Shown: positions 8,225 to 17,524 of the stretch, piece after piece | Numbering within the stretch: position 1 is the first letter of the stretch | Layout: every line of letters starts with the position of its first letter | From: Clostridium sp. UBA699 | Lineage (GTDB): Bacteria; Bacillota; Clostridia; Clostridiales; Clostridiaceae | Length of the DNA: 18,355 bases | Reading direction: 5' to 3' | Assembly: GCA_002298915.1 (NCBI GenBank) | Contig: DBML01000015.1 | Coordinates: forward strand, 16,234-34,588 | Notes under the pieces: model-generated | Databases searched by the model: none | Seen by the model: only the letters and a program-made list of their open reading frames with translations | Told to the model about the DNA's origin: nothing | Made by a program: the position numbers and the translations under genes

Positions 8225-8818
8225 TTATGAGTGCTTTCTGCAGTAAGCTTCAACCTTCTCTGCAAAGGCTCCAGGAATTTTCTCCTGCCAATAGGGAACT
8301 GACGCCATCAGGGACTTAAGTGCCTTATGATATTTGCTTTCGCCAAGTTCGGTCTTTATTTTCCCCATCAGATATTCAAGGTCTTTAAATTTTAGGACGC
8401 GGGTGTTAGGATCACCTTTGACAAGATTATCGAGCACAGTCAAATATATAAACGCACTGCCTCGGTTCATGCCTGTCTTAACCGACACCTCTGTGCTTAG
8501 CGGATTGACTTCACCGGATCCTTCAAGATGCCTTAAGAAGGCAAGCCAAACTTCGTCAACCATCGCCGTGGTAATTCTGCTGTTACTGCGAGTCGAGGAT
8601 TTTGAACCCTCTTCAAAGGAGTCCTCAAAATCCTCTGATATTTTTGGTTCTGGTCGCTTAGCCACTGTTCCGGTCATAGTCATCGGCAGCCCTTTCTCTA
8701 AAGCTATCCTTCTTAGATAAATGCTCACGGCTATCGTTACATCCATTCCCAGTGAGTGAAGAACCTTTTCGGCTTCGTACAAGATTCCGTCGTCAATTTG
8801 GATTTCTATCTTTGCCAT
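8225..8818 (-). CDS. RelB/DinJ-type ribbon-helix-helix (RHH) antitoxin-like N-terminal domain fused to a ~150-aa C-terminal domain of unknown function. No partner toxin gene is present in the window.
   Basis: The N-terminus MAKIEIQIDDGILYEAEKVLHSLGMDVTIAVSIYLRRIALEKGLP resembles DinJ/RelB. The acidic linker and C-terminal domain are unrecognised. Start at MAKIE (8816-8818), with GGAGGTG 7 nt upstream. Confidence 0.55.
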   Translation of the reverse strand: MAKIEIQIDDGILYEAEKVLHSLGMDVTIAVSIYLRRIALEKGLPMTMTGTVAKRPEPKISEDFEDSFEEGSKSSTRSNSRITTAMVDEVWLAFLRHLEGSGEVNPLSTEVSVKTGMNRGSAFIYLTVLDNLVKGDPNTRVLKFKDLEYLMGKIKTELGESKYHKALKSLMASVPYWQEKIPGAFAEKVEAYCRKHS

Positions 8819-8839
8819 ATTAAACACCTCCACAAAATA

Positions 8840-9037: not shown

Positions 9038-9083
9038 AAAACCACCTGCTGATAATTAATTTTATCAGCAGGTGGTTTTCTTT
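9038..9083. terminator. Bidirectional intrinsic terminator (AAAAACCACCTGCTGATA-loop-TATCAGCAGGTGGTTTT).
   Basis: 14-bp stem flanked by an A-run and a T-run. It terminates the tRNA-Ser transcript on the minus strand. Confidence 0.7.
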
Positions 9084-9172
9084 TGGCGGAGACGGTGGGA
9101 TTCGAACCCACGTGCCCGTGAGGACAAAACGATTTCGAGTCGTTCTCGTTATGACCACTTCGATACGTCTCC
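9084..9172 (-). tRNA. tRNA-Ser, anticodon CGA, class II with long variable arm, encoded CCA.
   Basis: Manual fold: acceptor GGAGACG/CGTCTCC; D-stem TCG/CGA; anticodon stem AACGA/TCGTT; loop CTCGAAA; variable arm 16 nt; T-arm GTGGG-TTCGAAT-CCCAC; discriminator G; CCA. Confidence 0.85.
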
Positions 9173-9253: not shown

Positions 9254-9274
9254 TCTTATATCGGAGGGATGATT

Positions 9275-10252
9275 ATGAAACTTGAATTCTATACTCTGTC
9301 CAGGTACCTGTTCCTTAAAATTGAAAGGGAGTACGCTAACCTTGTCGAAAAGTCAGGCGTAACTCTTCCCCAGCTTAGGATACTTTGGATAATAAGCGCT
9401 TTTCCTGGAGCCAATTCAACTATGATATCCAATATCGGCTGCTGGACCCCGCCTACCGTGTCAAGGATGATCAAAATCCTGCTCGAGAAGAACCTCATCG
9501 ACCGCGATGCATCCGGGAGCAAATCAAAGGGCATCCACCTTACAGCGAAGGGCCTGGCCACAATTCAGGAAAACAGGCAGCTTCACGGGAGCGCCTTCCC
9601 GCTGTTCAAGCTGATGGACGCTACCGAAAAAGACGAGCTTGACAGCCTCATAAGCGTATACAAGTATACGGCTGTTGAATCGGGCAACGACTTAATAATG
9701 GACTACATCGACAAGGTTAACGATCTTTCGCTTAAGATCGACTACTCGACTTTCCCCGAGGCCGATCAGGCAAGGCTTAGGAAGCTGGTGGAGCTCTACA
9801 ACCTGCTCAGGGTGTTCGTGCTCTCAGTGGAGAACTCTCACAGCCTCCTGCTGAACAAGCTTGGCCTTACCTACCCGCAGATGAGAGCCCTAACTGTGAT
9901 AAAGGCCTACAGCGGGCTTACCTCCTCCCAGCTTGCCGAGATAGCCCTGTGGTCACCGTCCTCGGCAAACCTGGTCGTCAAGAACCTTCTTTCGAAAAAC
10001 CTCATCTACAGGAAAAAGGGAGTCGTGAAGAATTCTCTTCACATGTACGTCACTGACAAGGCAGTGGAAGTTCTCAATGAGGATTCCAAAGAGAACGAAA
10101 ATAAAATCGGCACGTTGAACCTGCTGGACGATGTGCCCAAAGAGAAGCTGCGCGAGCTCAACGTACTCCTTCATACCCTGAACAAGTCGGTGAACAACGA
10201 CATGGTGGTCGACTTCATAGACAGGGTGCTATACCCTGTCAAGAAGCTTTAG
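9275..10252 (+). CDS. Two-domain (tandem-duplicated) MarR-family winged-helix transcriptional regulator.
   Basis: 325 aa. Two MarR-like wHTH units (residues ~30-120 and ~190-280). Start at the second ATG (MKLEF), which has a GGAGGG spacing of 6. Confidence 0.65.
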   Translation: MKLEFYTLSRYLFLKIEREYANLVEKSGVTLPQLRILWIISAFPGANSTMISNIGCWTPPTVSRMIKILLEKNLIDRDASGSKSKGIHLTAKGLATIQENRQLHGSAFPLFKLMDATEKDELDSLISVYKYTAVESGNDLIMDYIDKVNDLSLKIDYSTFPEADQARLRKLVELYNLLRVFVLSVENSHSLLLNKLGLTYPQMRALTVIKAYSGLTSSQLAEIALWSPSSANLVVKNLLSKNLIYRKKGVVKNSLHMYVTDKAVEVLNEDSKENENKIGTLNLLDDVPKEKLRELNVLLHTLNKSVNNDMVVDFIDRVLYPVKKL

Positions 10253-10933
10253 AAGCCCATAGATAAGCGCCTGCGGCGATGGCGGGCACCCCGGAACCGT
10301 CAGGTCAACAGGCATTATTTCCTCAAGCCTGCTTACCACACCGTAGCTGTCCTTGAAGATGCCCCCGTCATGGGCGCATGCTCCAGCGGCTATGACGATC
10401 CTCGGTTCGGCCATTGCCTCGTAGGACTTTATCAGGGCTTCCTTCATGTTGATCGTTACAGGCCCTGTCACCACTATGCCGTCAGCGTGCCTAGGGGATG
10501 CCGCGAACTCGATCCCGTATCTGGAAAGGGAATAGTAGTTGTTGGACATAGCCGAGAGCTCGAGCATGCAGGCGTTGCAGGAACCTGTGTCCACAGACCT
10601 CAGAACGAGTGACCTGCTGAACCTTTTATAGATTTTACGCCTTAGCTCATCCCCTGCCAGCTCAAGCTCAGCCAGCCTGAACTCGTGGCTGTCGGAGAGC
10701 GCGCCCTGCCCGCAGGCTTCGATGCAACGTCCGCAGTATATGCAGCTTCTGTGGTCGATGGCAGCTTTCCCGTTTTCAACCTGTACTGCCCCGACGATGC
10801 ACTCCGAGGAGCATTCCCCGCAGCCGGTACAGCTGTCCTTAACTTCAATCTTTCCGTATGAATAAACGTTGGCGCAAAGGGGATCCTTTGCCGCATCCTT
10901 TCCGTTCATCATCCTGTCATATATAAATTTCAT
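10229..10933 (-). CDS. Ehr/Hyc-type fused subunit: N-terminal 2x[4Fe-4S] ferredoxin (HycF/NuoI-like) plus C-terminal small subunit (HycG/NuoB-like).
   Basis: Two CxxCxxCxxxC ferredoxin motifs at the N-terminus. NuoB-type cysteines are GSCNAC...GACA...PGCPP. It overlaps the convergent MarR gene by 24 nt. Confidence 0.75.
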   Translation of the reverse strand: MKFIYDRMMNGKDAAKDPLCANVYSYGKIEVKDSCTGCGECSSECIVGAVQVENGKAAIDHRSCIYCGRCIEACGQGALSDSHEFRLAELELAGDELRRKIYKRFSRSLVLRSVDTGSCNACMLELSAMSNNYYSLSRYGIEFAASPRHADGIVVTGPVTINMKEALIKSYEAMAEPRIVIAAGACAHDGGIFKDSYGVVSRLEEIMPVDLTVPGCPPSPQALIYGLLKLLDRV

Positions 10934-10941
10934 GGCAATCC

Positions 10942-12513
10942 CTACCTATCATTCTCAGAATAAGACATATTGAGGCTCTTGTTGCACAGAGGAAAGTCCG
11001 GAACAATCTCCCCCATGACGGCGTATGTCAGCCCCCTCCAGTTGGCGAAGGATGGCGTCTTCATGTAAATCCTTTCAAACCTGTTGCCCCTGCCCGCCAT
11101 GCCGTAGATGATGAGGTCGCCCTTCACCGTCTCAACGGACACTATCGCTTCCTGTCCCTGCATGAGGGTGAAAGGGTTCCGCTGTTTGGGGACGGTTCTT
11201 CCTCCGATGCATTCCAGTGCACCCCTGATGTAGTCGAAGGCATTCCTTACCTCCTCAACCTTCAGCTTGTACCTCTCGAAAACGCCCCCGATGCTCTCGG
11301 TGAGCACAGGCTTCTTAAGCTTCGGGTAGAGCTCGTAGCCGAAGCTGTTCCTCACGTCGTAGACGATCCCGCTTGCCCTGCCGGAGACCCCGGTCATGCA
11401 GAGCTTCACTGCATTGTCGTTCCTAATGATCCCCGTGTTCTCCACCCTATCCAGGAACGAAACCGAGCTCAGGGTCATTCCTACAATCCTGTTGAACCTT
11501 CCACAGAAGGATTCGAGTGTATCCACAATATCCACAGCCTTTGCGCTGCTGAATTCGATGCCGCTGCCGCAAGGGATTATCGAGTTCCTGAGGAACCTGC
11601 TTCCAGTAACCCTCTCGCAAAGCTGGCGGACTATCTCGGAAAAGTAGCTGTACTTCTTCGCAGGGTAGCTGAAGCCTATGTCGACGCATATGCCTGCAAT
11701 ATCCTCGAGGAAGTTGCACGCCCTTTCAAGCTCCAGGAGAACTACCCTCAGTGCCTTCAAATCGTCGGGTGCGGACCACCCAACAAGGCTCTCAACCAGA
11801 TGGGCATACCCTTCAGCGTATGCGGCTGTCGACTCGCCTGAGACTCGCTCGAACACCATGCCCAGCTTGTCAGCGTCCACATTTTCCATCAGCTTCTCGA
11901 TCCCCCTGTGCTTGTACATGAGCCTCAGCTCAAGGTTTTCGATCGACTCGCCTATCGCGCTGAACCTGAAGTGTCCGGGTTCGATGATGCCCGCATGGAC
12001 GGGGCCAACTGCTATCTGGTAGCCGCCCTCGCCAGCGAGACCCTTGTATTCGTATATCCCGGTCTCGCTGGTCTCCCTGACCTTGACTCCGTGAGGAAAG
12101 TCCTTCCGAAGAGGGAAAACGTCCTTTTCCCAAGGCTCATGCTTGACCAGGTGCCTCCTGTCTGCTCCCCCTTCTATCTCTAGGCCGTACAGGTCGGCCA
12201 TCTCCCTCTCGAAAAGGTGGGCCTGGAACACCAGGTTCTGGATGGACATGACGCTGCTGTCGGTCTTGTACCTTATGACTACGTAGTAGTTGTGCTTCCT
12301 GCTGATGAAGAGGATGCTGACAAGAAAGCCCTCCGCACCGGTTTCCTGCTGGCAATACTCAGCCGCGAAATTCAGCTTGTGGGCGGAATACAGAAGTGTC
12401 GCAACCTCCGCGGCTTCCGACTTTGGCACGCTGACGTATAGCTCGTTACCGTTTTTTATTACTGTGCTGTATTTTAAATTCTCCAGCTTTTCCTGGAGCT
12501 GATCAATCTTCAT
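10942..12513 (-). CDS. Fused NuoC-NuoD / HycE-like 'large subunit' in which the [NiFe]-ligand cysteines are replaced (Ehr type).
   Basis: GPVHAGIIEPGHFRF and YKHRGIEK motifs. At the N-terminal L1 position RVSGES replaces RxCGxC. At the C-terminal L2 position SLNMSYSENDR replaces SLDPCxxCxxR. Confidence 0.8.
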   Translation of the reverse strand: MKIDQLQEKLENLKYSTVIKNGNELYVSVPKSEAAEVATLLYSAHKLNFAAEYCQQETGAEGFLVSILFISRKHNYYVVIRYKTDSSVMSIQNLVFQAHLFEREMADLYGLEIEGGADRRHLVKHEPWEKDVFPLRKDFPHGVKVRETSETGIYEYKGLAGEGGYQIAVGPVHAGIIEPGHFRFSAIGESIENLELRLMYKHRGIEKLMENVDADKLGMVFERVSGESTAAYAEGYAHLVESLVGWSAPDDLKALRVVLLELERACNFLEDIAGICVDIGFSYPAKKYSYFSEIVRQLCERVTGSRFLRNSIIPCGSGIEFSSAKAVDIVDTLESFCGRFNRIVGMTLSSVSFLDRVENTGIIRNDNAVKLCMTGVSGRASGIVYDVRNSFGYELYPKLKKPVLTESIGGVFERYKLKVEEVRNAFDYIRGALECIGGRTVPKQRNPFTLMQGQEAIVSVETVKGDLIIYGMAGRGNRFERIYMKTPSFANWRGLTYAVMGEIVPDFPLCNKSLNMSYSENDR

Positions 12514-12523
12514 GTTTCACTTC

Positions 12524-13984
12524 CTAACCGCAGATTATAGCGACTGCGCTGTTTATCAATGGGTTCATAAGGTTGCCGAAAGTGGCGCTTATGAATATGA
12601 TCATAGCCAGTGCTGCAAAAAGGGGGACGATGTTCTCCCTGTCCTTTTCGAGCCTGACGAGCTCCTCCGTGCCGTCATCCAGGAATATAATCTTCACGAA
12701 GGGCACTATGAACCCGGCGAAGGCTATCAGCAGGCTCAGTGCCAGCACCGACGACGACAGGTATTCACCGTTGTTGAAGCCGTTCTGAAGTATCTTAAGC
12801 TCGCTGAAGAACGAAGCGGCAGGCGGGGTCCCGGTTATGACAAGGATGCCGATTATCAGGAATACAGAGTTGACAGGCATCGTCTTTATCAGGCACTTGA
12901 TCTTTCCTATCCTCTTCGTCTTGTAAGCGCTGAGTATATTCCCGGAAACCAGAAAAAGAAGGCTCTTCCCGTAGGCATGGATGACCGAGTGCAGAAGAGC
13001 GCCGTACACACCCAGAAGCCCTCCGAAGCCGAATCCCAGGCTCATTATGCCTATGTTTTCCACAGAGGAAAATGCCAGAAGCCTCTTGTAGTTTGTCTGC
13101 TTCAGTATGCTGAAGGTCGATATAACGAGCGACAGGCATCCGAACACGATGAAGAGGTACCTCATGTTCTGCAGGCCATCAGCCATCCTGACTATGACGT
13201 AGAACCTCACGATGACGTATAGCGCCAGGTTGATGAGGATTCCCGACATCATCGCGCTGATGGGAGACGGCGCCTCGCTGTGTCCGTCGGACAGCCAGGT
13301 GTGCATGGGCGCTATGCCCGCTTTGGTGCCTATTCCCACGAAGATAAAGGTGAAGGCCGCCATTAGCACGGTCCTGTTGAAACCCTTGTCCCACCCCAGC
13401 AGATAGGTCCACTGCAGCATGGAGGTGTTGATTTCGGCATTCAGGGAATAGATGAACAGTATGATTCCCACAAGCCCCATTGCGAGGCCAACCGAGCATA
13501 TTATAATATACTTCCAGGCCGCCTCGAGGGAGAGCTTGCTGTTGTTGAAGCCGATCAGGAAAGCGGTCGCAAGCGTTGTCGCCTCCAGCCCTATCCACAT
13601 GCCCATTATGTTGTTGCTCACGGCAAGGAATATCATAGAGAACACGAACACCTGGAAAAGCATGAAGTAAGCCTTAGCCTTCCTCAGGCTTATGGCTTTC
13701 TCTTCATATTCGCATAAGATGTACCTGTGTGAGTATATAGCCGTGACTGCGCTTACTGTCGTTATGATGATGAGCTGTATCTCGCTGAGGCTGTCTATGT
13801 ATACTGCGCTTCCGAAATGGTACAAGTGCCCGCCTGCAGCCACTTCAAAACCTGTCATTACAGAGAGGATCAGAAGTAGAACTGTCCCCAGGATGTTGAC
13901 TATAGAAATTGCCTCAATTTTTTTCAAGATTGCCGACGCCGATATTGCCGCTGCGAATACCGCGATCATTAGATTAATTTGCAT
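12524..13984 (-). CDS. NuoN/NuoM/HyfF-like antiporter-type membrane subunit.
   Basis: 486 aa with about 14 predicted TM helices and Mrp-antiporter-like conserved stretches. AGGTGG RBS. Confidence 0.7.
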   Translation of the reverse strand: MQINLMIAVFAAAISASAILKKIEAISIVNILGTVLLLILSVMTGFEVAAGGHLYHFGSAVYIDSLSEIQLIIITTVSAVTAIYSHRYILCEYEEKAISLRKAKAYFMLFQVFVFSMIFLAVSNNIMGMWIGLEATTLATAFLIGFNNSKLSLEAAWKYIIICSVGLAMGLVGIILFIYSLNAEINTSMLQWTYLLGWDKGFNRTVLMAAFTFIFVGIGTKAGIAPMHTWLSDGHSEAPSPISAMMSGILINLALYVIVRFYVIVRMADGLQNMRYLFIVFGCLSLVISTFSILKQTNYKRLLAFSSVENIGIMSLGFGFGGLLGVYGALLHSVIHAYGKSLLFLVSGNILSAYKTKRIGKIKCLIKTMPVNSVFLIIGILVITGTPPAASFFSELKILQNGFNNGEYLSSSVLALSLLIAFAGFIVPFVKIIFLDDGTEELVRLEKDRENIVPLFAALAMIIFISATFGNLMNPLINSAVAIICG

Positions 13985-13995
13985 TTTTCCACCTG

Positions 13996-14613
13996 CTATT
14001 CCTTTAGATTCGAAAGATAGTCCGTATTCAGCGTGTCGAAGGTCTTGTTTATGTTGAAGATCATTATCCCCATTATCATCGCAAGTATGAGCACCTCGAA
14101 CACTATACCGAACTCTATGACGGACCCCATCTTGACCATGGATATTTCAAAAAGGACGACCCCGTTCTCCATAGTGAGCAGCCCTATCATCTGAGTGATG
14201 GCCTTTCTCCTCCCCATCATAAGCAGCGCGCCAGTGATTATGAGGATGCACCCAACCTTGAAAAGGTAGTCCGAGAAGTTACCCAGGAAGATGAAGCTAA
14301 GCGCAACGGCCGCTCCGGTTACGATGTACGACCAGGAGCCGCTTAGTATGAGGTCTGTCTCCCTCTCCAGCTTGGCGTGCATGATCGACTTGCTGATTAT
14401 CATAGGTATTATGACGACCTTTGTTATTATTGTCAGGAAAAACAGGATGTAGTAGTGGTATTCACCCGCGGTGTAGCCCTTGGCAAGGCACAGAAGCGCT
14501 ATCGCAAGGGACTGCATGGCGAACCCCCTGTTGAGCAGCGAGGCCCGCCTGAAGCCGGACATGGCTACTGCGGATATCAGTATCAAAGAGATCAGAATTT
14601 CAATCATTCGCAT
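13996..14613 (-). CDS. HyfE-like small membrane subunit.
   Basis: 205 aa polytopic membrane protein; size and position match HyfE. Confidence 0.55.
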   Translation of the reverse strand: MRMIEILISLILISAVAMSGFRRASLLNRGFAMQSLAIALLCLAKGYTAGEYHYYILFFLTIITKVVIIPMIISKSIMHAKLERETDLILSGSWSYIVTGAAVALSFIFLGNFSDYLFKVGCILIITGALLMMGRRKAITQMIGLLTMENGVVLFEISMVKMGSVIEFGIVFEVLILAMIMGIMIFNINKTFDTLNTDYLSNLKE

Positions 14614-14622
14614 ACAGCTCCT

Positions 14623-15546
14623 CTAGAAAAAATTGATTACTATGGCGACGAGGCTCAGCGAGAACGCAGCCGAAAGCAGCTCGGGAACCCTGAAGAGCCT
14701 GAATTTTGCCATGGAGCATTCCACAAGCGAAATCGCCCCCAGCACCACCAGAACCTTCGCCATATATGATATGAAGGAGAGAACAACGGGAACGAGTGCA
14801 AAGGTCCCCGTCATTCCCATTGGGAAGAAGCAGTTTATGAATAAAGTCACGAAAACCATGAGCTTAACGTATGACGCCAGCTCCATCATTGCAAGGTCCC
14901 TGCCCGACGTATCCAGTATCATGGCCTCATGGACCATTGTGAGCTCCAGGTGCGTCTCCGGGTTGTCCACAGGAATCCTTGCATTCTCTGCAACGATGAG
15001 GACCGCAAATCCGATCGCAGCAATCAGGTTGGCTATGCCGTATCCGGTCGCGCCTGCCACTGCCTCGCTTATGCCGAACACGTTCATGGAACTTGTCTCC
15101 ATGTAGAGGAACGCAACCGTCAGGAACATGACAGGTTCGGCAAGCATTGATATGAAAAGCTCCCTGCTGCTGCCCATGCCCCCGAAGGCGCTGGCCGAAT
15201 CAAGCCCCGTAAGTGTCATGAAAAACTTAACAACCCCGAGAAGGAATATGATCACGAACATGTTCCCGGCAAACTGGTTCCCGTCGTTGAAGAAAACCGG
15301 CACCATGAATGCCGCGGTAATGCAGGCGCAGAGGCTAAGCCCCGGAGCAACAAGTGTCACGAAAGAACTGCTCGACGAAAGCACCCTGCCCTTCCCTAAC
15401 AGCTTTGCTATGTTGTAGTAAGGCTGCAGAACAGGGCAGGCTTTGCTGCCCCTTATCGACGCCTTTAGATTCTTTATTATCCCCATGAAAAACGGGGTCA
15501 GCATGAGAAGCATCAGGCTCTGTATGATGTAAAATGCGTATTTCAC
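14623..15546 (-). CDS. NuoH/HycD-like membrane subunit.
   Basis: 307 aa (HycD is 307 aa), polytopic. GTG start with TAGGAGGGG RBS. Confidence 0.7.
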   Translation of the reverse strand: MKYAFYIIQSLMLLMLTPFFMGIIKNLKASIRGSKACPVLQPYYNIAKLLGKGRVLSSSSSFVTLVAPGLSLCACITAAFMVPVFFNDGNQFAGNMFVIIFLLGVVKFFMTLTGLDSASAFGGMGSSRELFISMLAEPVMFLTVAFLYMETSSMNVFGISEAVAGATGYGIANLIAAIGFAVLIVAENARIPVDNPETHLELTMVHEAMILDTSGRDLAMMELASYVKLMVFVTLFINCFFPMGMTGTFALVPVVLSFISYMAKVLVVLGAISLVECSMAKFRLFRVPELLSAAFSLSLVAIVINFF

Positions 15547-15558
15547 GGCTTTCCCCTC

Positions 15559-17295
15559 CTAAACCAATTTGAGCACAAGCACGAGCGAAACGATGAGCGA
15601 AACGAATATATATGAAACGTATATCTGTATTTTTCCGTAGTGGATTTTTATGATCCTGGAAGCAATGTAATCGACAGCGCTTACAACCCTGACATATATG
15701 CTGTGCTCGATGACATCCCTGACCCTTGCCCTGGTGTGGACAGCCCCGTCCACCTTGACCTCTTTCCTGTAGCCGGCCGCGCTGCCGAATATCCTCATTC
15801 CGGGCTGCACGAAACCGTCCGGAGTGTACTCCATGTAAGGCCTGAAATAATTGAACCCGCAGGCCCACGTTCCACCTACAGAATCCGGTCCGTTCTTTGC
15901 GAGTTTCTTTGCCGAAAAATACACCGCAGCCGCTGTAAGCAGACCCACGCCCGACACAATTGTTATCTCCCAGCTTACAGCGCTAACCGATGAGCTTCCG
16001 TAAGCCCAGCCGTATATCAGGTTGATTATGAACGGCGAGAACACCCCGAACAGCACAGAGCACGCAGCCAGCGCAGCCATTCCCGCCTTCATGGTTCCAG
16101 GCAGCTCATGGGCTTGCTCCGCCTTCAGCGACCTTGGCTCGCCAAGGTATGTCATGCCGAAGCTCTTAACCGAAGCCCAGATTACCCCGCCGCCGGTGAG
16201 TGCGAGTACGATGCCGCAGAGCAGGATAGACATTGCGATCCACGGGATCTCAACCTGAGACATTGCCTGAATGAAGCTGCCGTAGATCAGTATCTCTCCT
16301 GCGAAGCCGTTCAGCGGCGGAACCGCAGCTACCGCAGCTGTCCCTATGAGCGCACATGCTGATGCGAATTTCATCTTCCTTGCAAGTCCGCCCAGCTCGT
16401 TCATGTTCTTCGTAGATGTGGCAAAAAGAACGCTGCCGGCGCTCATGAAGAGCAGGCTCTTGAACACCCCATGGTTGAGCATGTGGAACATCGCCGCAGC
16501 AAGTGCCAATGAGCTCAAGGCATGAAGGCCAATGCTCCTAAGAATCAGGGCGAGCCCCAGCACAGCGAACACCATCCCCATGTTCTCAGAGCTGGAATAA
16601 GCCAGAAGCTTTTTGATGTCGTTCTGGGCCAGCGAGTTGATTACTGCGTAAATTGCGGTCACCGTGCCGATCAGCATGACTGCAAAACCGAAATATGCCG
16701 AAACGTCCTGCACGAATAGGAATGCAACCCTTATGAACCCGTAGGCCGCAATCTTGAGCATTATGCCGGACATCATTGCCGAAACGTTGGACGGCGCAGC
16801 CGGATGCGCCTTTGGCAGCCAGGCGTGGAGCGGCACAAGGCCAGCCTTTGATCCGAAACCAGCCAACGCAAGTATGAGCACAACCAACCGCTGCTGCCCG
16901 GATATACCTGCAGTCCCCTCAGAAATGATGCTGAAGTCGTATGTACCTGTAAATTTTGCAAGCATTATGAACATCGCCAGTACTAGAAGCCCGCTGATAT
17001 GGGTCATGATGAAGTACATGATTCCGGACTTTATGTTTTCGCTTTTTTTATGTTCGAAAATGACCAGGAAGAATGACGATACCGACATAAGCTCCCAGAA
17101 AATCATGAAGCTTAAGCTGTTGCCAGAAAGCACCACCCCCGCCATCGATGCGACGAAGAGGGCTGTCATTCCCCAGAGGTACCTCGTTGAGTATTCGTTA
17201 CTGTACTCCCTGACATACCCCAAGGAATATACTATGTTCGGAAGCGCGGTCACCAGGATCAGCACTATGAAATAAATCGATAAAAAATCACGCAT
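15559..17295 (-). CDS. NuoL/HycC/HyfB-like antiporter-type membrane subunit; first gene of the Ehr-like operon.
   Basis: About 578 aa. TTG (17301) or ATG (17295) start after GGGAGA. Typical NuoL-family TM pattern. Confidence 0.7.
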   Translation of the reverse strand: MRDFLSIYFIVLILVTALPNIVYSLGYVREYSNEYSTRYLWGMTALFVASMAGVVLSGNSLSFMIFWELMSVSSFFLVIFEHKKSENIKSGIMYFIMTHISGLLVLAMFIMLAKFTGTYDFSIISEGTAGISGQQRLVVLILALAGFGSKAGLVPLHAWLPKAHPAAPSNVSAMMSGIMLKIAAYGFIRVAFLFVQDVSAYFGFAVMLIGTVTAIYAVINSLAQNDIKKLLAYSSSENMGMVFAVLGLALILRSIGLHALSSLALAAAMFHMLNHGVFKSLLFMSAGSVLFATSTKNMNELGGLARKMKFASACALIGTAAVAAVPPLNGFAGEILIYGSFIQAMSQVEIPWIAMSILLCGIVLALTGGGVIWASVKSFGMTYLGEPRSLKAEQAHELPGTMKAGMAALAACSVLFGVFSPFIINLIYGWAYGSSSVSAVSWEITIVSGVGLLTAAAVYFSAKKLAKNGPDSVGGTWACGFNYFRPYMEYTPDGFVQPGMRIFGSAAGYRKEVKVDGAVHTRARVRDVIEHSIYVRVVSAVDYIASRIIKIHYGKIQIYVSYIFVSLIVSLVLVLKLV

Positions 17296-17332
17296 ATACA
17301 ACTCAATCTCCCAATCATCAAGAATTTATTAA

Positions 17333-17368
17333 TTAGCATTCGAATATTATTTGTTAGCATTCGAATGT
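17333..17368. promoter_or_regulatory. Two copies of TTAGCATTCGAAT(A/G)TTAT, 22 bp apart, each centred on the palindrome CATTCGAATG/A. This is a candidate operator upstream of the Ehr-like operon.
   Basis: CATTCGAATG (17358-17367) is a perfect 10-bp palindrome. The first copy (17337-17346) matches 9 of 10. Confidence 0.4.
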
Positions 17369-17425
17369 TATGACGCACAAACACCACCATGGTAACATAA
17401 ATCAAATGCTAAAACAAGGCGCAAA

Positions 17426-17524
17426 TCACCTTTTGCCTGAGAATAAAAAAACTAGTACAATTACGACTAAAATTACTGTAATTGCGGAAATTATTGCGGT
17501 CATTATTGTTAAGGATTCGATCAT
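17426..17524 (-). CDS. Candidate 32-aa hydrophobic peptide (MIESLTIMTAIISAITVILVVIVLVFLFSGKR). It starts 2 nt after the tadA stop.
   Basis: I translated it by hand. It has a single predicted TM helix and a basic C-terminus. The RBS is weak and the region is AT-rich, so this is low confidence. Confidence 0.25.
   Translation of the reverse strand: MIESLTIMTAIISAITVILVVIVLVFLFSGKR

Follow-up and report, generated by a model that had tools for sequence, protein, structure and literature searches.

An Ehr-type operon without nickel-iron ligands and its MarR-family neighbour in a clostridial clade

The operon and its membrane subunits

The stretch of DNA analysed here, referred to below as the window, comprises 18,355 nucleotides (nt) of Clostridium sp. 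UBA699 (assembly GCA_002298915.1, contig DBML01000015.1), and its minus strand carries, between positions 10229 and 17301, six intact open reading frames arranged head to tail with intergenic gaps of 8 to 12 nt. Profile searches with Pfam and NCBIfam assigned these genes, in the order A-B-C-D-L-S, to the membrane, large and small subunits of an Ehr-type complex (Table 1), in agreement with an earlier note on this DNA, which had read the operon as encoding HycC/NuoL-like, HycD/NuoH-like, HyfE-like and HyfF/NuoN-like proteins together with a large and a small subunit. The reading frame of the first gene reaches 17301 if counted from a TTG codon and 17295 if counted from an ATG codon, and because the TTG is not conserved in L003 (related loci that we compared carry labels of this form) we took the ATG to be the start. 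Plus-strand reading frames within the operon (e.g., 12512-13222) were taken to be antisense artefacts. The sequence of the window is identical to that of a JGI metagenome contig (sample 3300029327), and the nearest genomes are those of uncultured Bacillota.

The order and lengths of the six genes are kept in 11 related loci, and comparison with two relatives gave ratios of nonsynonymous to synonymous substitution rates (dN/dS) of 0.02-0.09 in all six. The operon is under strong purifying selection and is functional; it is not the disrupted or pseudogenised locus that the earlier note had allowed for.

Table 1. Genes of the operon, its neighbouring regulator and candidate regulatory elements in the window
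Feature	Position	Strand	Remarks
EhrA-like, HyfB/HycC/NuoL-type antiporter-like membrane protein	15559-17295	-	578 amino acids from conserved ATG
EhrB-like, HycD/NuoH-type subunit linking redox module to membrane arm	14623-15546	-	307 amino acids
EhrC-like, small HyfE-like membrane subunit	13996-14613	-	205 amino acids
EhrD-like, second antiporter-like subunit, HyfF/NuoN-type	12524-13984	-	486 amino acids
EhrL large subunit, NuoC-like (~1-145) and HycE/NuoD-like (~165-523)	10942-12513	-	Complex1_30kDa and Complex1_49kDa
EhrS small subunit, ferredoxin domain and HycG/NuoB-like domain	10229-10933	-	Pfam Fer4 and Oxidored_q6
Two-domain (tandem) MarR-family regulator	9269-10252	+	convergent with ehrS, 24-nt overlap
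Candidate operator, two exact ATTCGAATGCTAA copies 21 nt apart, palindromic core ATTCGAAT	17333-17345, 17354-17366		between putative promoter and first gene
Putative promoter, -35 TTGTTT, 17-nt spacer, TG-extended -10 TACCAT (17389-17394)	17389-17417	-	read by eye

The four membrane subunits each matched the expected family. The EhrA-like protein matched the NCBIfam HyfB profile (2e-157; Proton_antipo_M) over positions 79-667, lacking about 75 N-terminal residues of that profile, and matched HycC (1.2e-58) and MbhH (7e-49) in the PDB; its gene has a dN/dS of 0.075-0.085, and residues E68 (transmembrane helix 5), K150 (helix 7), K181 (helix 8), K279 and E334 (helix 12) are invariant in seven operons of the clostridial clade described below. 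The EhrB-like protein matched Pfam NADHdh (1.1e-30) and, over its full length, HycD (7z0s_D, 1.4e-29), with the invariant acidic residues E129, E137, E187, D194, E201, E207 and E276 common to the group 4f and Ehr relatives. The EhrC-like protein matched the hydrogenase-4 membrane subunit HyfE of NCBIfam over its full length (2.8e-14); its E149 and E167 do not vary among the clostridial, 4f and Ehr operons compared, and its dN/dS is 0.02-0.06. The EhrD-like protein matched NCBIfam HyfF (2e-117; Proton_antipo_M) as well as MbhH (3e-36) and MbsH (6e-33) in the PDB, and its residues E134, K221, K340 and E395 are invariant. Apart from one position of the EhrD-like subunit given below, the charged channel residues (Glu of helix 5, Lys of helices 7, 8 and 11 and Glu of helix 12 in the two antiporter-like subunits, the acidic residues of the EhrB-like subunit and the two Glu of the EhrC-like subunit) are invariant in the seven clade operons and are common to a 4f relative that retains its cysteines and to mainstream Ehr, in line with the ion coupling proposed below. 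The locus is not an Mrp antiporter: it has no MrpE-, MrpF- or MrpG-like gene, and it includes a redox module of the HycE/HycG type.

The redox subunits and their family

Ligand positions in the large subunit were mapped by phmmer searches against the PDB, in which EhrL matched Escherichia coli HycE (7z0s_E) at 9e-43; residue numbers for HycE follow PMC9474812. The HycE segments RVCGICGFAH and DPCYSCTDR aligned with RVSGESTAAY and NMSYSENDR, respectively, placing S225, S228, S517 and E520 of EhrL at the Ni-Fe ligands C241, C244, C531 and C534, and Y232 at His248 of the L1 motif. Neither of the group 4 [NiFe]-hydrogenase motifs, RxCGxCxxxH and [DE][PL]CxxCxx[HR], is present in EhrL, which ends at R523 without a C-terminal extension. 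The framework and replacement motifs quoted in the earlier note are all in place (GPVHAGIIEPGHFRF at 170-184, YKHRGIEK at 200-207, RVSGES at 223-228 and NMSYSE at 515-520), and the loss of all four cysteines that it had read from them was borne out. Displaced cysteines, which would have made the protein a true hydrogenase, were not found: the ligands have not merely moved, because C299 is the only other cysteine conserved across the clade.

The replaced motifs are themselves conserved. In 120 homologue clusters (47-100% identity), ERV[SA]GES..AY.E and NKS[FL]NMSYSEND[RK] are near-invariant; the hosts include Clostridium drakei, C. magnum, C. homopropionicum, C. estertheticum and C. akagii, as well as Parasporobacterium paucivorans, Fervidicella metallireducens and Desulfonispora thiosulfatigenes. 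The alignment and this family-wide conservation support the claim that the complex cannot bind Ni-Fe. At the same time, the proton-pathway residues E193, R395 and E437 of HycE are retained as E178, R379 and E421, and the beta1-beta2 loop of EhrL, GPVHAGIIEPGH, contains the hydrogenase-type Glu178. EhrL is closer in sequence to HycE than to NuoD (9e-43 versus 1e-27). AlphaFold models of the monomers confirmed the folds; for the EhrL model (predicted template modelling score 0.85), HycE 7z0s_E gave the best superposition (template modelling scores 0.89/0.87), and the complex I NuoCD fusions ranked behind it.

In the small subunit, EhrS, a linker helix (residues 83-105) joins the N-terminal 2x[4Fe-4S] ferredoxin domain (~26-90) to a HycG/NuoB-like domain (~106-233), which carries the proximal [4Fe-4S] site. 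The N-terminal domain carries two CxxCxxCxxxC motifs, and the CxxC...C...C ligands of the proximal [4Fe-4S] cluster are C119, C122, C186 and C216, as aligned to HycG and MbhJ; all 12 cysteines are invariant in 28 homologues (53-85% identity), in keeping with the claim that the [4Fe-4S] cysteines of the small subunit had been retained. PDB searches matched HycG (6e-31) and MbhJ (3e-30), and the fold of the AlphaFold model matched NuoB, MbhJ and HycG. The GSCNAC segment gives a hydrogenase-type CxxC, not the tandem cysteines by which NuoB ligates cluster N2 (PMC9474812). The ferredoxin domain matched polyferredoxins, FrhG, RnfB, NdhI and HycF-type profiles at similar strength in the PDB and NCBIfam, and because the other matches are comparably strong the label HycF is unjustified. 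Thus, of the "HycF ferredoxin plus HycG" fusion that had been reported, the fused ferredoxin and the HycG-like domain stand, and the HycF identity cannot be demonstrated.

To place the family, we sought relatives of EhrL among 1.84 billion cluster representatives. The whole clostridial family forms a single cluster at 50% identity, and its next relatives are at most 41% identical. These all share GPxHAGxIEPGHFRF and are of two kinds: about 25 of 150 keep four cysteines (R[IV]CG[VA]C...H and ELCY[AS]CxDR) and are group 4f-like hydrogenases, and a larger set is Cys-less, with R[IV]SGD[STE] and NLSY[SA]GNDL. A large-subunit phylogeny, one of the checks proposed in the earlier note, was built by neighbour joining with 60 bootstraps and without reference Geobacter sequences; the clostridial clade was monophyletic in 60/60, and although deep resolution was weak and the exact sister was not fixed, its nearest neighbours were always Cys-less and never the four-Cys group. 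One clade member (P0012, 64% identical) is labelled "Solirubrobacterales bacterium," an Actinomycetota metagenome-assembled genome, which probably reflects a binning error or transfer.

Ehr complexes have been described as lying near group 4f, without CxxC motifs and with no known function (PMC10284858, PMC6349859, PMC3569383). The name was first given to the Geobacter complex (EhrA-D, L, S), and a survey by Marreiros et al. followed in 2013, according to PMC3569383, PMC6349859, PMC7894505 and PMC10284858, which cite them; the Geobacter complex has the same subunit types and names (PMC7894505), and HydDB treats Ehr as non-hydrogenase homologues outside the hydrogenase classification (PMC5037454). 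The window operon shares the features by which the family is defined: a Cys-less large subunit of the group 4 type, the composition EhrA-D, L and S, and a placement among Cys-less sequences near 4f. Alignment, motif conservation, phylogeny and the definition in the literature all agree with the assignment made in the earlier note, namely, membership in the Ehr family, of unknown function. It is near certain that the locus encodes an intact Ehr-type complex without nickel, belonging to a distinct clostridial clade; it adds no new kind of system.

This assignment matters for annotation. The source databases name these proteins "Ni,Fe-hydrogenase III large subunit," "formate hydrogenlyase subunit 5" or "NADH-quinone oxidoreductase subunit C," and Ehr proteins are often misannotated in this way as hydrogenases or NADH dehydrogenases, so that counting them as H2 metabolism in metagenome surveys is misleading. 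Others have already discarded "group 4f" matches from clostridial acetogens as unvalidated hydrogenases (PMC9431212).

The former metal site of the clade differs from that of its relatives at several positions. Residue 227 is Glu, not Asp, and residue 232 is Tyr, not His. Position 268, equivalent to HycE His284, is Phe or Tyr in the clade, whereas His is found there in all 25 four-Cys sequences and in 86 of 95 other Ehr sequences; the canopy position 464 is Lys, in contrast to the Arg of 20/25 four-Cys 4f and 92/95 other Ehr sequences; and position 520, at the fourth ligand column, is Glu, where 86 of the 95 other Ehr sequences have Gly. The clade large subunit ends ...NDR. K464, N267 and the C-terminal Glu are complex I states, the Glu being that of the ...FGEVDR segment which Paracoccus NuoD shares with the 49-kDa subunit of C. 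thermophilum. The quinone-ligating residues of complex I are missing, Gly226 standing in place of Tyr (Y87 in Nqo4) and Ile177 in place of His, and EhrL does not have the ligand signature of the complex I quinone module.

The ferredoxin fusion and the ...DR end are both shared with Firmicute 4f hydrogenases, which suggested that the clostridial clade may have lost its Ni-Fe site independently, from such an enzyme. The bootstraps never grouped the clade with four-Cys sequences, but given the weak deep resolution noted above this scenario may still hold.

Regulation, proposed function and alternatives

The regulator beside the operon was described in the earlier note as a two-domain MarR protein, and this description held: Pfam placed MarR at residues 31-82 and MarR_2 at 198-249, and the internal repeat was also seen as self-offsets in BLASTP. 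The gene has a dN/dS of 0.10. Full-length orthologues adjoin the operon in C. drakei (45% identity, divergent, upstream) and C. estertheticum (40%, upstream, same strand), and among 92 loci the gene was present in 8 of the 11 of the clostridial clade and in none of the 81 other Ehr/4f loci. The palindromic candidate operator motif, TAA[CT]ATTCGAATG[CT]TAA, precedes the first gene in 7 of the 8 MarR-bearing clade loci (besides the window, L001, L003, C. drakei L005, C. estertheticum L011, L014 and L033) and in 0 of the 3 without MarR. Thus, the regulator is a conserved, clade-specific partner of the operon with a conserved candidate operator, and it is probably a dedicated repressor; of the points raised in the earlier note, the MarR neighbour proved the most fruitful.

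The region upstream of the MarR gene contains no ATTCGAAT motif, which leaves autoregulation unsupported. A consensus promoter scan upstream of the operon called no promoter; the -10-like element read by eye belongs to a pattern, TGnTAC(C/T)AT, that is conserved in L001, L003 and L004, and because the repeats sit downstream of this element the repressor would act as a roadblock. No riboswitch or leader RNA was found in an Rfam scan, and searching the literature for expression data on the clostridial genes yielded nothing decisive. Between tadA and the operon promoter lies a reading frame of 32 amino acids whose product would be very hydrophobic (MIESLTIMTAIISAITVILVVIVLVFLFSGKR; 17426-17524, minus strand). 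It can also be recognised in L001 and L003, where its ...FLFSGKR end is conserved, and it may either encode a small membrane peptide or have arisen by chance.

Taken together, these observations led us to propose, with a probability of roughly 0.55, that the operon encodes a six-subunit membrane oxidoreductase that has no Ni-Fe site, oxidises ferredoxin, translocates ions and neither makes nor consumes H2. We infer the donor, the direction, the ion coupling and the repression as follows. Reduced ferredoxin or a similar low-potential donor would deliver electrons to the two [4Fe-4S] clusters in the N-terminal domain of EhrS, the fused ferredoxin domain being the obvious point of entry; electrons would then pass to the proximal cluster, equivalent to N2 of complex I and G1 of formate hydrogenlyase, and from there to an acceptor in the remodelled Ni-Fe pocket. 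This pocket is predicted to be lined by S225, E227, S228, Y232, K464, N515, S517, Y518 and E520, with E178 of the beta1-beta2 loop retained. The free energy released would move H+ or Na+ via the HycD-like, HyfE-like and two antiporter-like subunits. MarR would repress the operon by binding the pair of ATTCGAAT operators that closely follows the putative promoter, so that expression would be induced by a specific ligand or stress and not be constitutive.

The six genes look self-contained, because gene-by-gene inspection of seven clade loci showed no dehydrogenase, formate dehydrogenase, HycB-like, NuoEF-like, carbon monoxide dehydrogenase or hyp gene next to the operon (four further clade loci were searched only for homologues of the window's own genes). 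The lack of an adjacent partner dehydrogenase is consistent with a free donor. No hyp maturation genes were found in the window or in the examined 17.5 kb of the matching 35-kb metagenome contig.

Several points weigh against the proposal. Our literature search found no biochemically characterised Ehr complex. Confidence in the AlphaFold monomer of EhrL is low in the pocket itself (residues 162-189, 500-505 and 518-523), and the monomer models do not show where the ferredoxin domain sits with respect to the proximal cluster. The residue equivalent to HycE His284 is Phe or Tyr in the clade, which makes the supply of protons to the pocket unlike that in any relative. In the EhrD-like subunit the Lys of helix 8 is replaced by Asn (~N251; SGILINLAL versus SGLVIKIGG of MbhH and MbsH), the other channel residues being retained. 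Three clade loci have no MarR gene within 10 kb, and the inferred binding of MarR to the operator, like the putative position of the promoter, rests on conservation.

The alternative that survives best is a special case of the proposal, in which the complex is a complex-I-like ferredoxin:quinone oxidoreductase and the pocket binds either menaquinone or an acceptor of exogenous origin, whether quinone-like, humic or of the phenazine type. Such a pocket would explain the three clade-specific complex-I-like positions (K464, N267 and the Glu at the fourth Cys), and HpaR was the best NCBIfam match of the second MarR domain, far below the cut-off; MarR regulators often sense aromatic or phenolic ligands. 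Nevertheless, Gly226 and Ile177 replace the quinone-ligating Tyr and His, the loop keeps its hydrogenase-type Glu, EhrS has CxxC and not the tandem cysteines of NuoB, and most Clostridium species are, to our knowledge, not known to make quinones. We regard this alternative as unlikely. A still more specific version, which we put forward as distinctly speculative, would make the clostridial S-S-S-E clade a separate Ehr branch: a MarR-inducible, ferredoxin-fed ion pump. Its pocket, having lost the proton-relay His, would have come to resemble the quinone site of complex I in part by convergence (canopy Lys and Asn, C-terminal Glu), and the pump would reduce an organic acceptor, perhaps an aromatic or quinone-like compound of exogenous origin to which MarR responds. 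If true, bacteria that are generally considered to lack quinones would possess an inducible form of anaerobic respiration that has so far gone unrecognised.

It is also conceivable that the Fe-S chain senses the redox state of ferredoxin and switches an Mrp-like transporter, so that the complex would be a redox-gated cation or proton antiporter carrying out no net reduction. The charged residues of both Mrp/Nuo-type modules are intact, the operon has no acceptor-related gene beside it in the seven inspected loci, the pocket carboxylates E178, E227 and E520 could be redox-linked protonation sites, and stress-type MarR regulation would fit. Yet the whole HycE/HycG/HycD coupling apparatus, including R379 and E421, is strongly selected, which is more than a sensor seems to need, and we know of no member of the superfamily that acts in this way. 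We therefore give this explanation little credence.

We give even less to the idea that the complex is the membrane module of a larger assembly whose electron-input enzyme, e.g., a formate dehydrogenase, is encoded elsewhere. A formate dehydrogenase-Ehr complex has been proposed for Margulisbacteria and Saganbacteria (PMC6349859), the Ehr subunits of Geobacter are more abundant on formate (PMC7894505), and the HycE lineage is formate-hydrogenlyase-like, all of which favour a partner enzyme; against it, none of the formate dehydrogenase, HycB-like, NuoEF-like or carbon monoxide dehydrogenase genes adjoins the operon in the seven inspected loci, and the clade's own fused ferredoxin domain can serve as the entry point. 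A true [NiFe]-hydrogenase with displaced or substituted ligands, to which the hydrogenase-like fold, the framework motifs and the close four-Cys relatives might point, is contradicted by the alignment and very improbable, given that the four ligand columns align unambiguously to Ser/Ser/Ser/Glu with only C299 otherwise conserved and that HydDB classes Ehr among non-hydrogenase homologues (PMC5037454). A decaying, functionless remnant of a hydrogenase operon would account for the lost catalytic ligands but is contradicted by six reading frames intact in 11 loci, their low dN/dS and invariant replacement residues, and is barely credible.

Whichever acceptor is used by the proposed ferredoxin-oxidising complex, the clostridial clade is a practical place in which to ask what Ehr does: it offers cultured hosts (C. 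drakei, C. magnum, C. estertheticum, C. homopropionicum and C. akagii), a fused ferredoxin domain through which electrons can enter, a conserved pocket of distinctive make-up, and a probable repressor with a recognisable candidate operator. The probable MarR repressor provides an experimental handle, through de-repression or a search for the inducer.

Elsewhere in the window, a tRNA-Ser(CGA) gene (9084-9172, minus strand), preceded by a strong hairpin at ~9040-9080, lies between the MarR gene and a RelB-like gene (8225-8833, minus strand). The latter encodes 202 amino acids, of which the first ~70 match RelB/DinJ antitoxins (5.6e-9, below the cut-off) and the remainder forms a long unannotated C-terminal extension; no obvious toxin gene stands beside it. 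Genes for flavodoxin_4, a cupin, a short-chain dehydrogenase, an Fe-alcohol dehydrogenase and a MerR regulator cluster at 4356-7912 (minus strand) in what looks like an electrophile or carbonyl-stress module. A similar cluster (flavodoxin, aldo-keto reductase, short-chain dehydrogenase, Fe-alcohol dehydrogenase and MerR) adjoins the operon in L003, and in C. drakei a MerR and CMD pair follows it. Two adjacent WYL/WCX-domain genes (409 and 326 amino acids) and an SPFH/Band-7 protein gene occupy 388-2598 (minus strand) and 3130-4278 (plus strand); WYL/WCX pairs often regulate defence or mobile islands. Downstream of the Ehr operon in L004, a Clostridiaceae metagenome-assembled genome, positions 16530-20967 encode SIR2_2, DUF87-FtsK-like and SIR2_2+STALD proteins, resembling an anti-phage defence island.

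Comparison with known systems

Like mainstream Ehr, the window operon encodes a multisubunit membrane complex with NuoL-, NuoH- and HyfE-like subunits and a second antiporter-like subunit, and in phylogeny this Cys-less kind is interleaved with group 4f. Many mainstream Ehr operons (among them L006 and L008), and the four-Cys operon L007 too, have the six genes in A-B-C-D-L-S order, two of them for antiporter-like subunits. The NuoC-NuoD fusion (~500-530 amino acids) is present in essentially all 4f/Ehr relatives and is the normal build of HycE (PMC9474812), and the ferredoxin-EhrS fusion also occurs in L007 (240 amino acids) and in Ehr types of the SESG/SNSG kind (L009 and four more). Thus, the compact, fused, two-antiporter build that the earlier note had singled out as special is standard in Ehr/4f. 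Mainstream Ehr operons (L021, L031, L032, L034, L035 and others) have two gene orders, ABCDLS and, with the small-subunit gene in front, SABCDL, and in L025 and L070 two Ehr-like gene sets stand in tandem.

The differences from mainstream Ehr lie elsewhere. Mainstream large subunits carry R[IV]SGD[ST].. and NLSY[SA]GNDL, with Gly at the fourth Cys and a Leu end, and keep both the His equivalent to HycE H284 and the canopy Arg; their small subunits are usually plain, 24 of the 29 scored being without the ferredoxin fusion (~170 amino acids). The clostridial clade, in contrast, always has the ferredoxin-fused EhrS, an N-terminally shorter EhrA and a two-domain MarR partner, and its EhrL is 33-41% identical to mainstream Ehr large subunits in a direct comparison that excludes Geobacter sequences. 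With the putative group 4f hydrogenases (a HydDB class, represented by L007), the operon shares its six-gene order, the NuoC-NuoD fusion, GPxHAGxIEPGHFRF and the ferredoxin-fused EhrS at ~37-38% identity, but those proteins keep RxCGxCxxxH and ELCY[AS]CxDR and match Pfam NiFeSe_Hases, whereas the window protein has 0/4 of the cysteines.

E. coli formate hydrogenlyase (Hyd-3, HycBCDEFG with FdhF; 7Z0S) supplied the best matches of solved structure, in HycE, HycG, HycD and HycC. Compared with it, the window operon lacks the Ni-Fe ligands, HycB, FdhF, a separate HycF and the endopeptidase-processing extension, has His284 replaced, and contains a second antiporter-like subunit. It has such a subunit in common with E. 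coli Hyf (Hyd-4), whose gene order it resembles in the form hyfB-C-(D missing)-E-F-G-(H+I fused). Finally, although the operon differs from complex I in lacking the quinone-ligating Tyr and His, in having CxxC in place of tandem cysteines and in having no NuoEFG, NuoA or NuoJ set, it shares with the Q-module (NuoB/NuoCD/NuoH) the fold, the loss of the Ni-Fe cysteines, the Glu at the fourth-Cys position and the Lys/Asn canopy.

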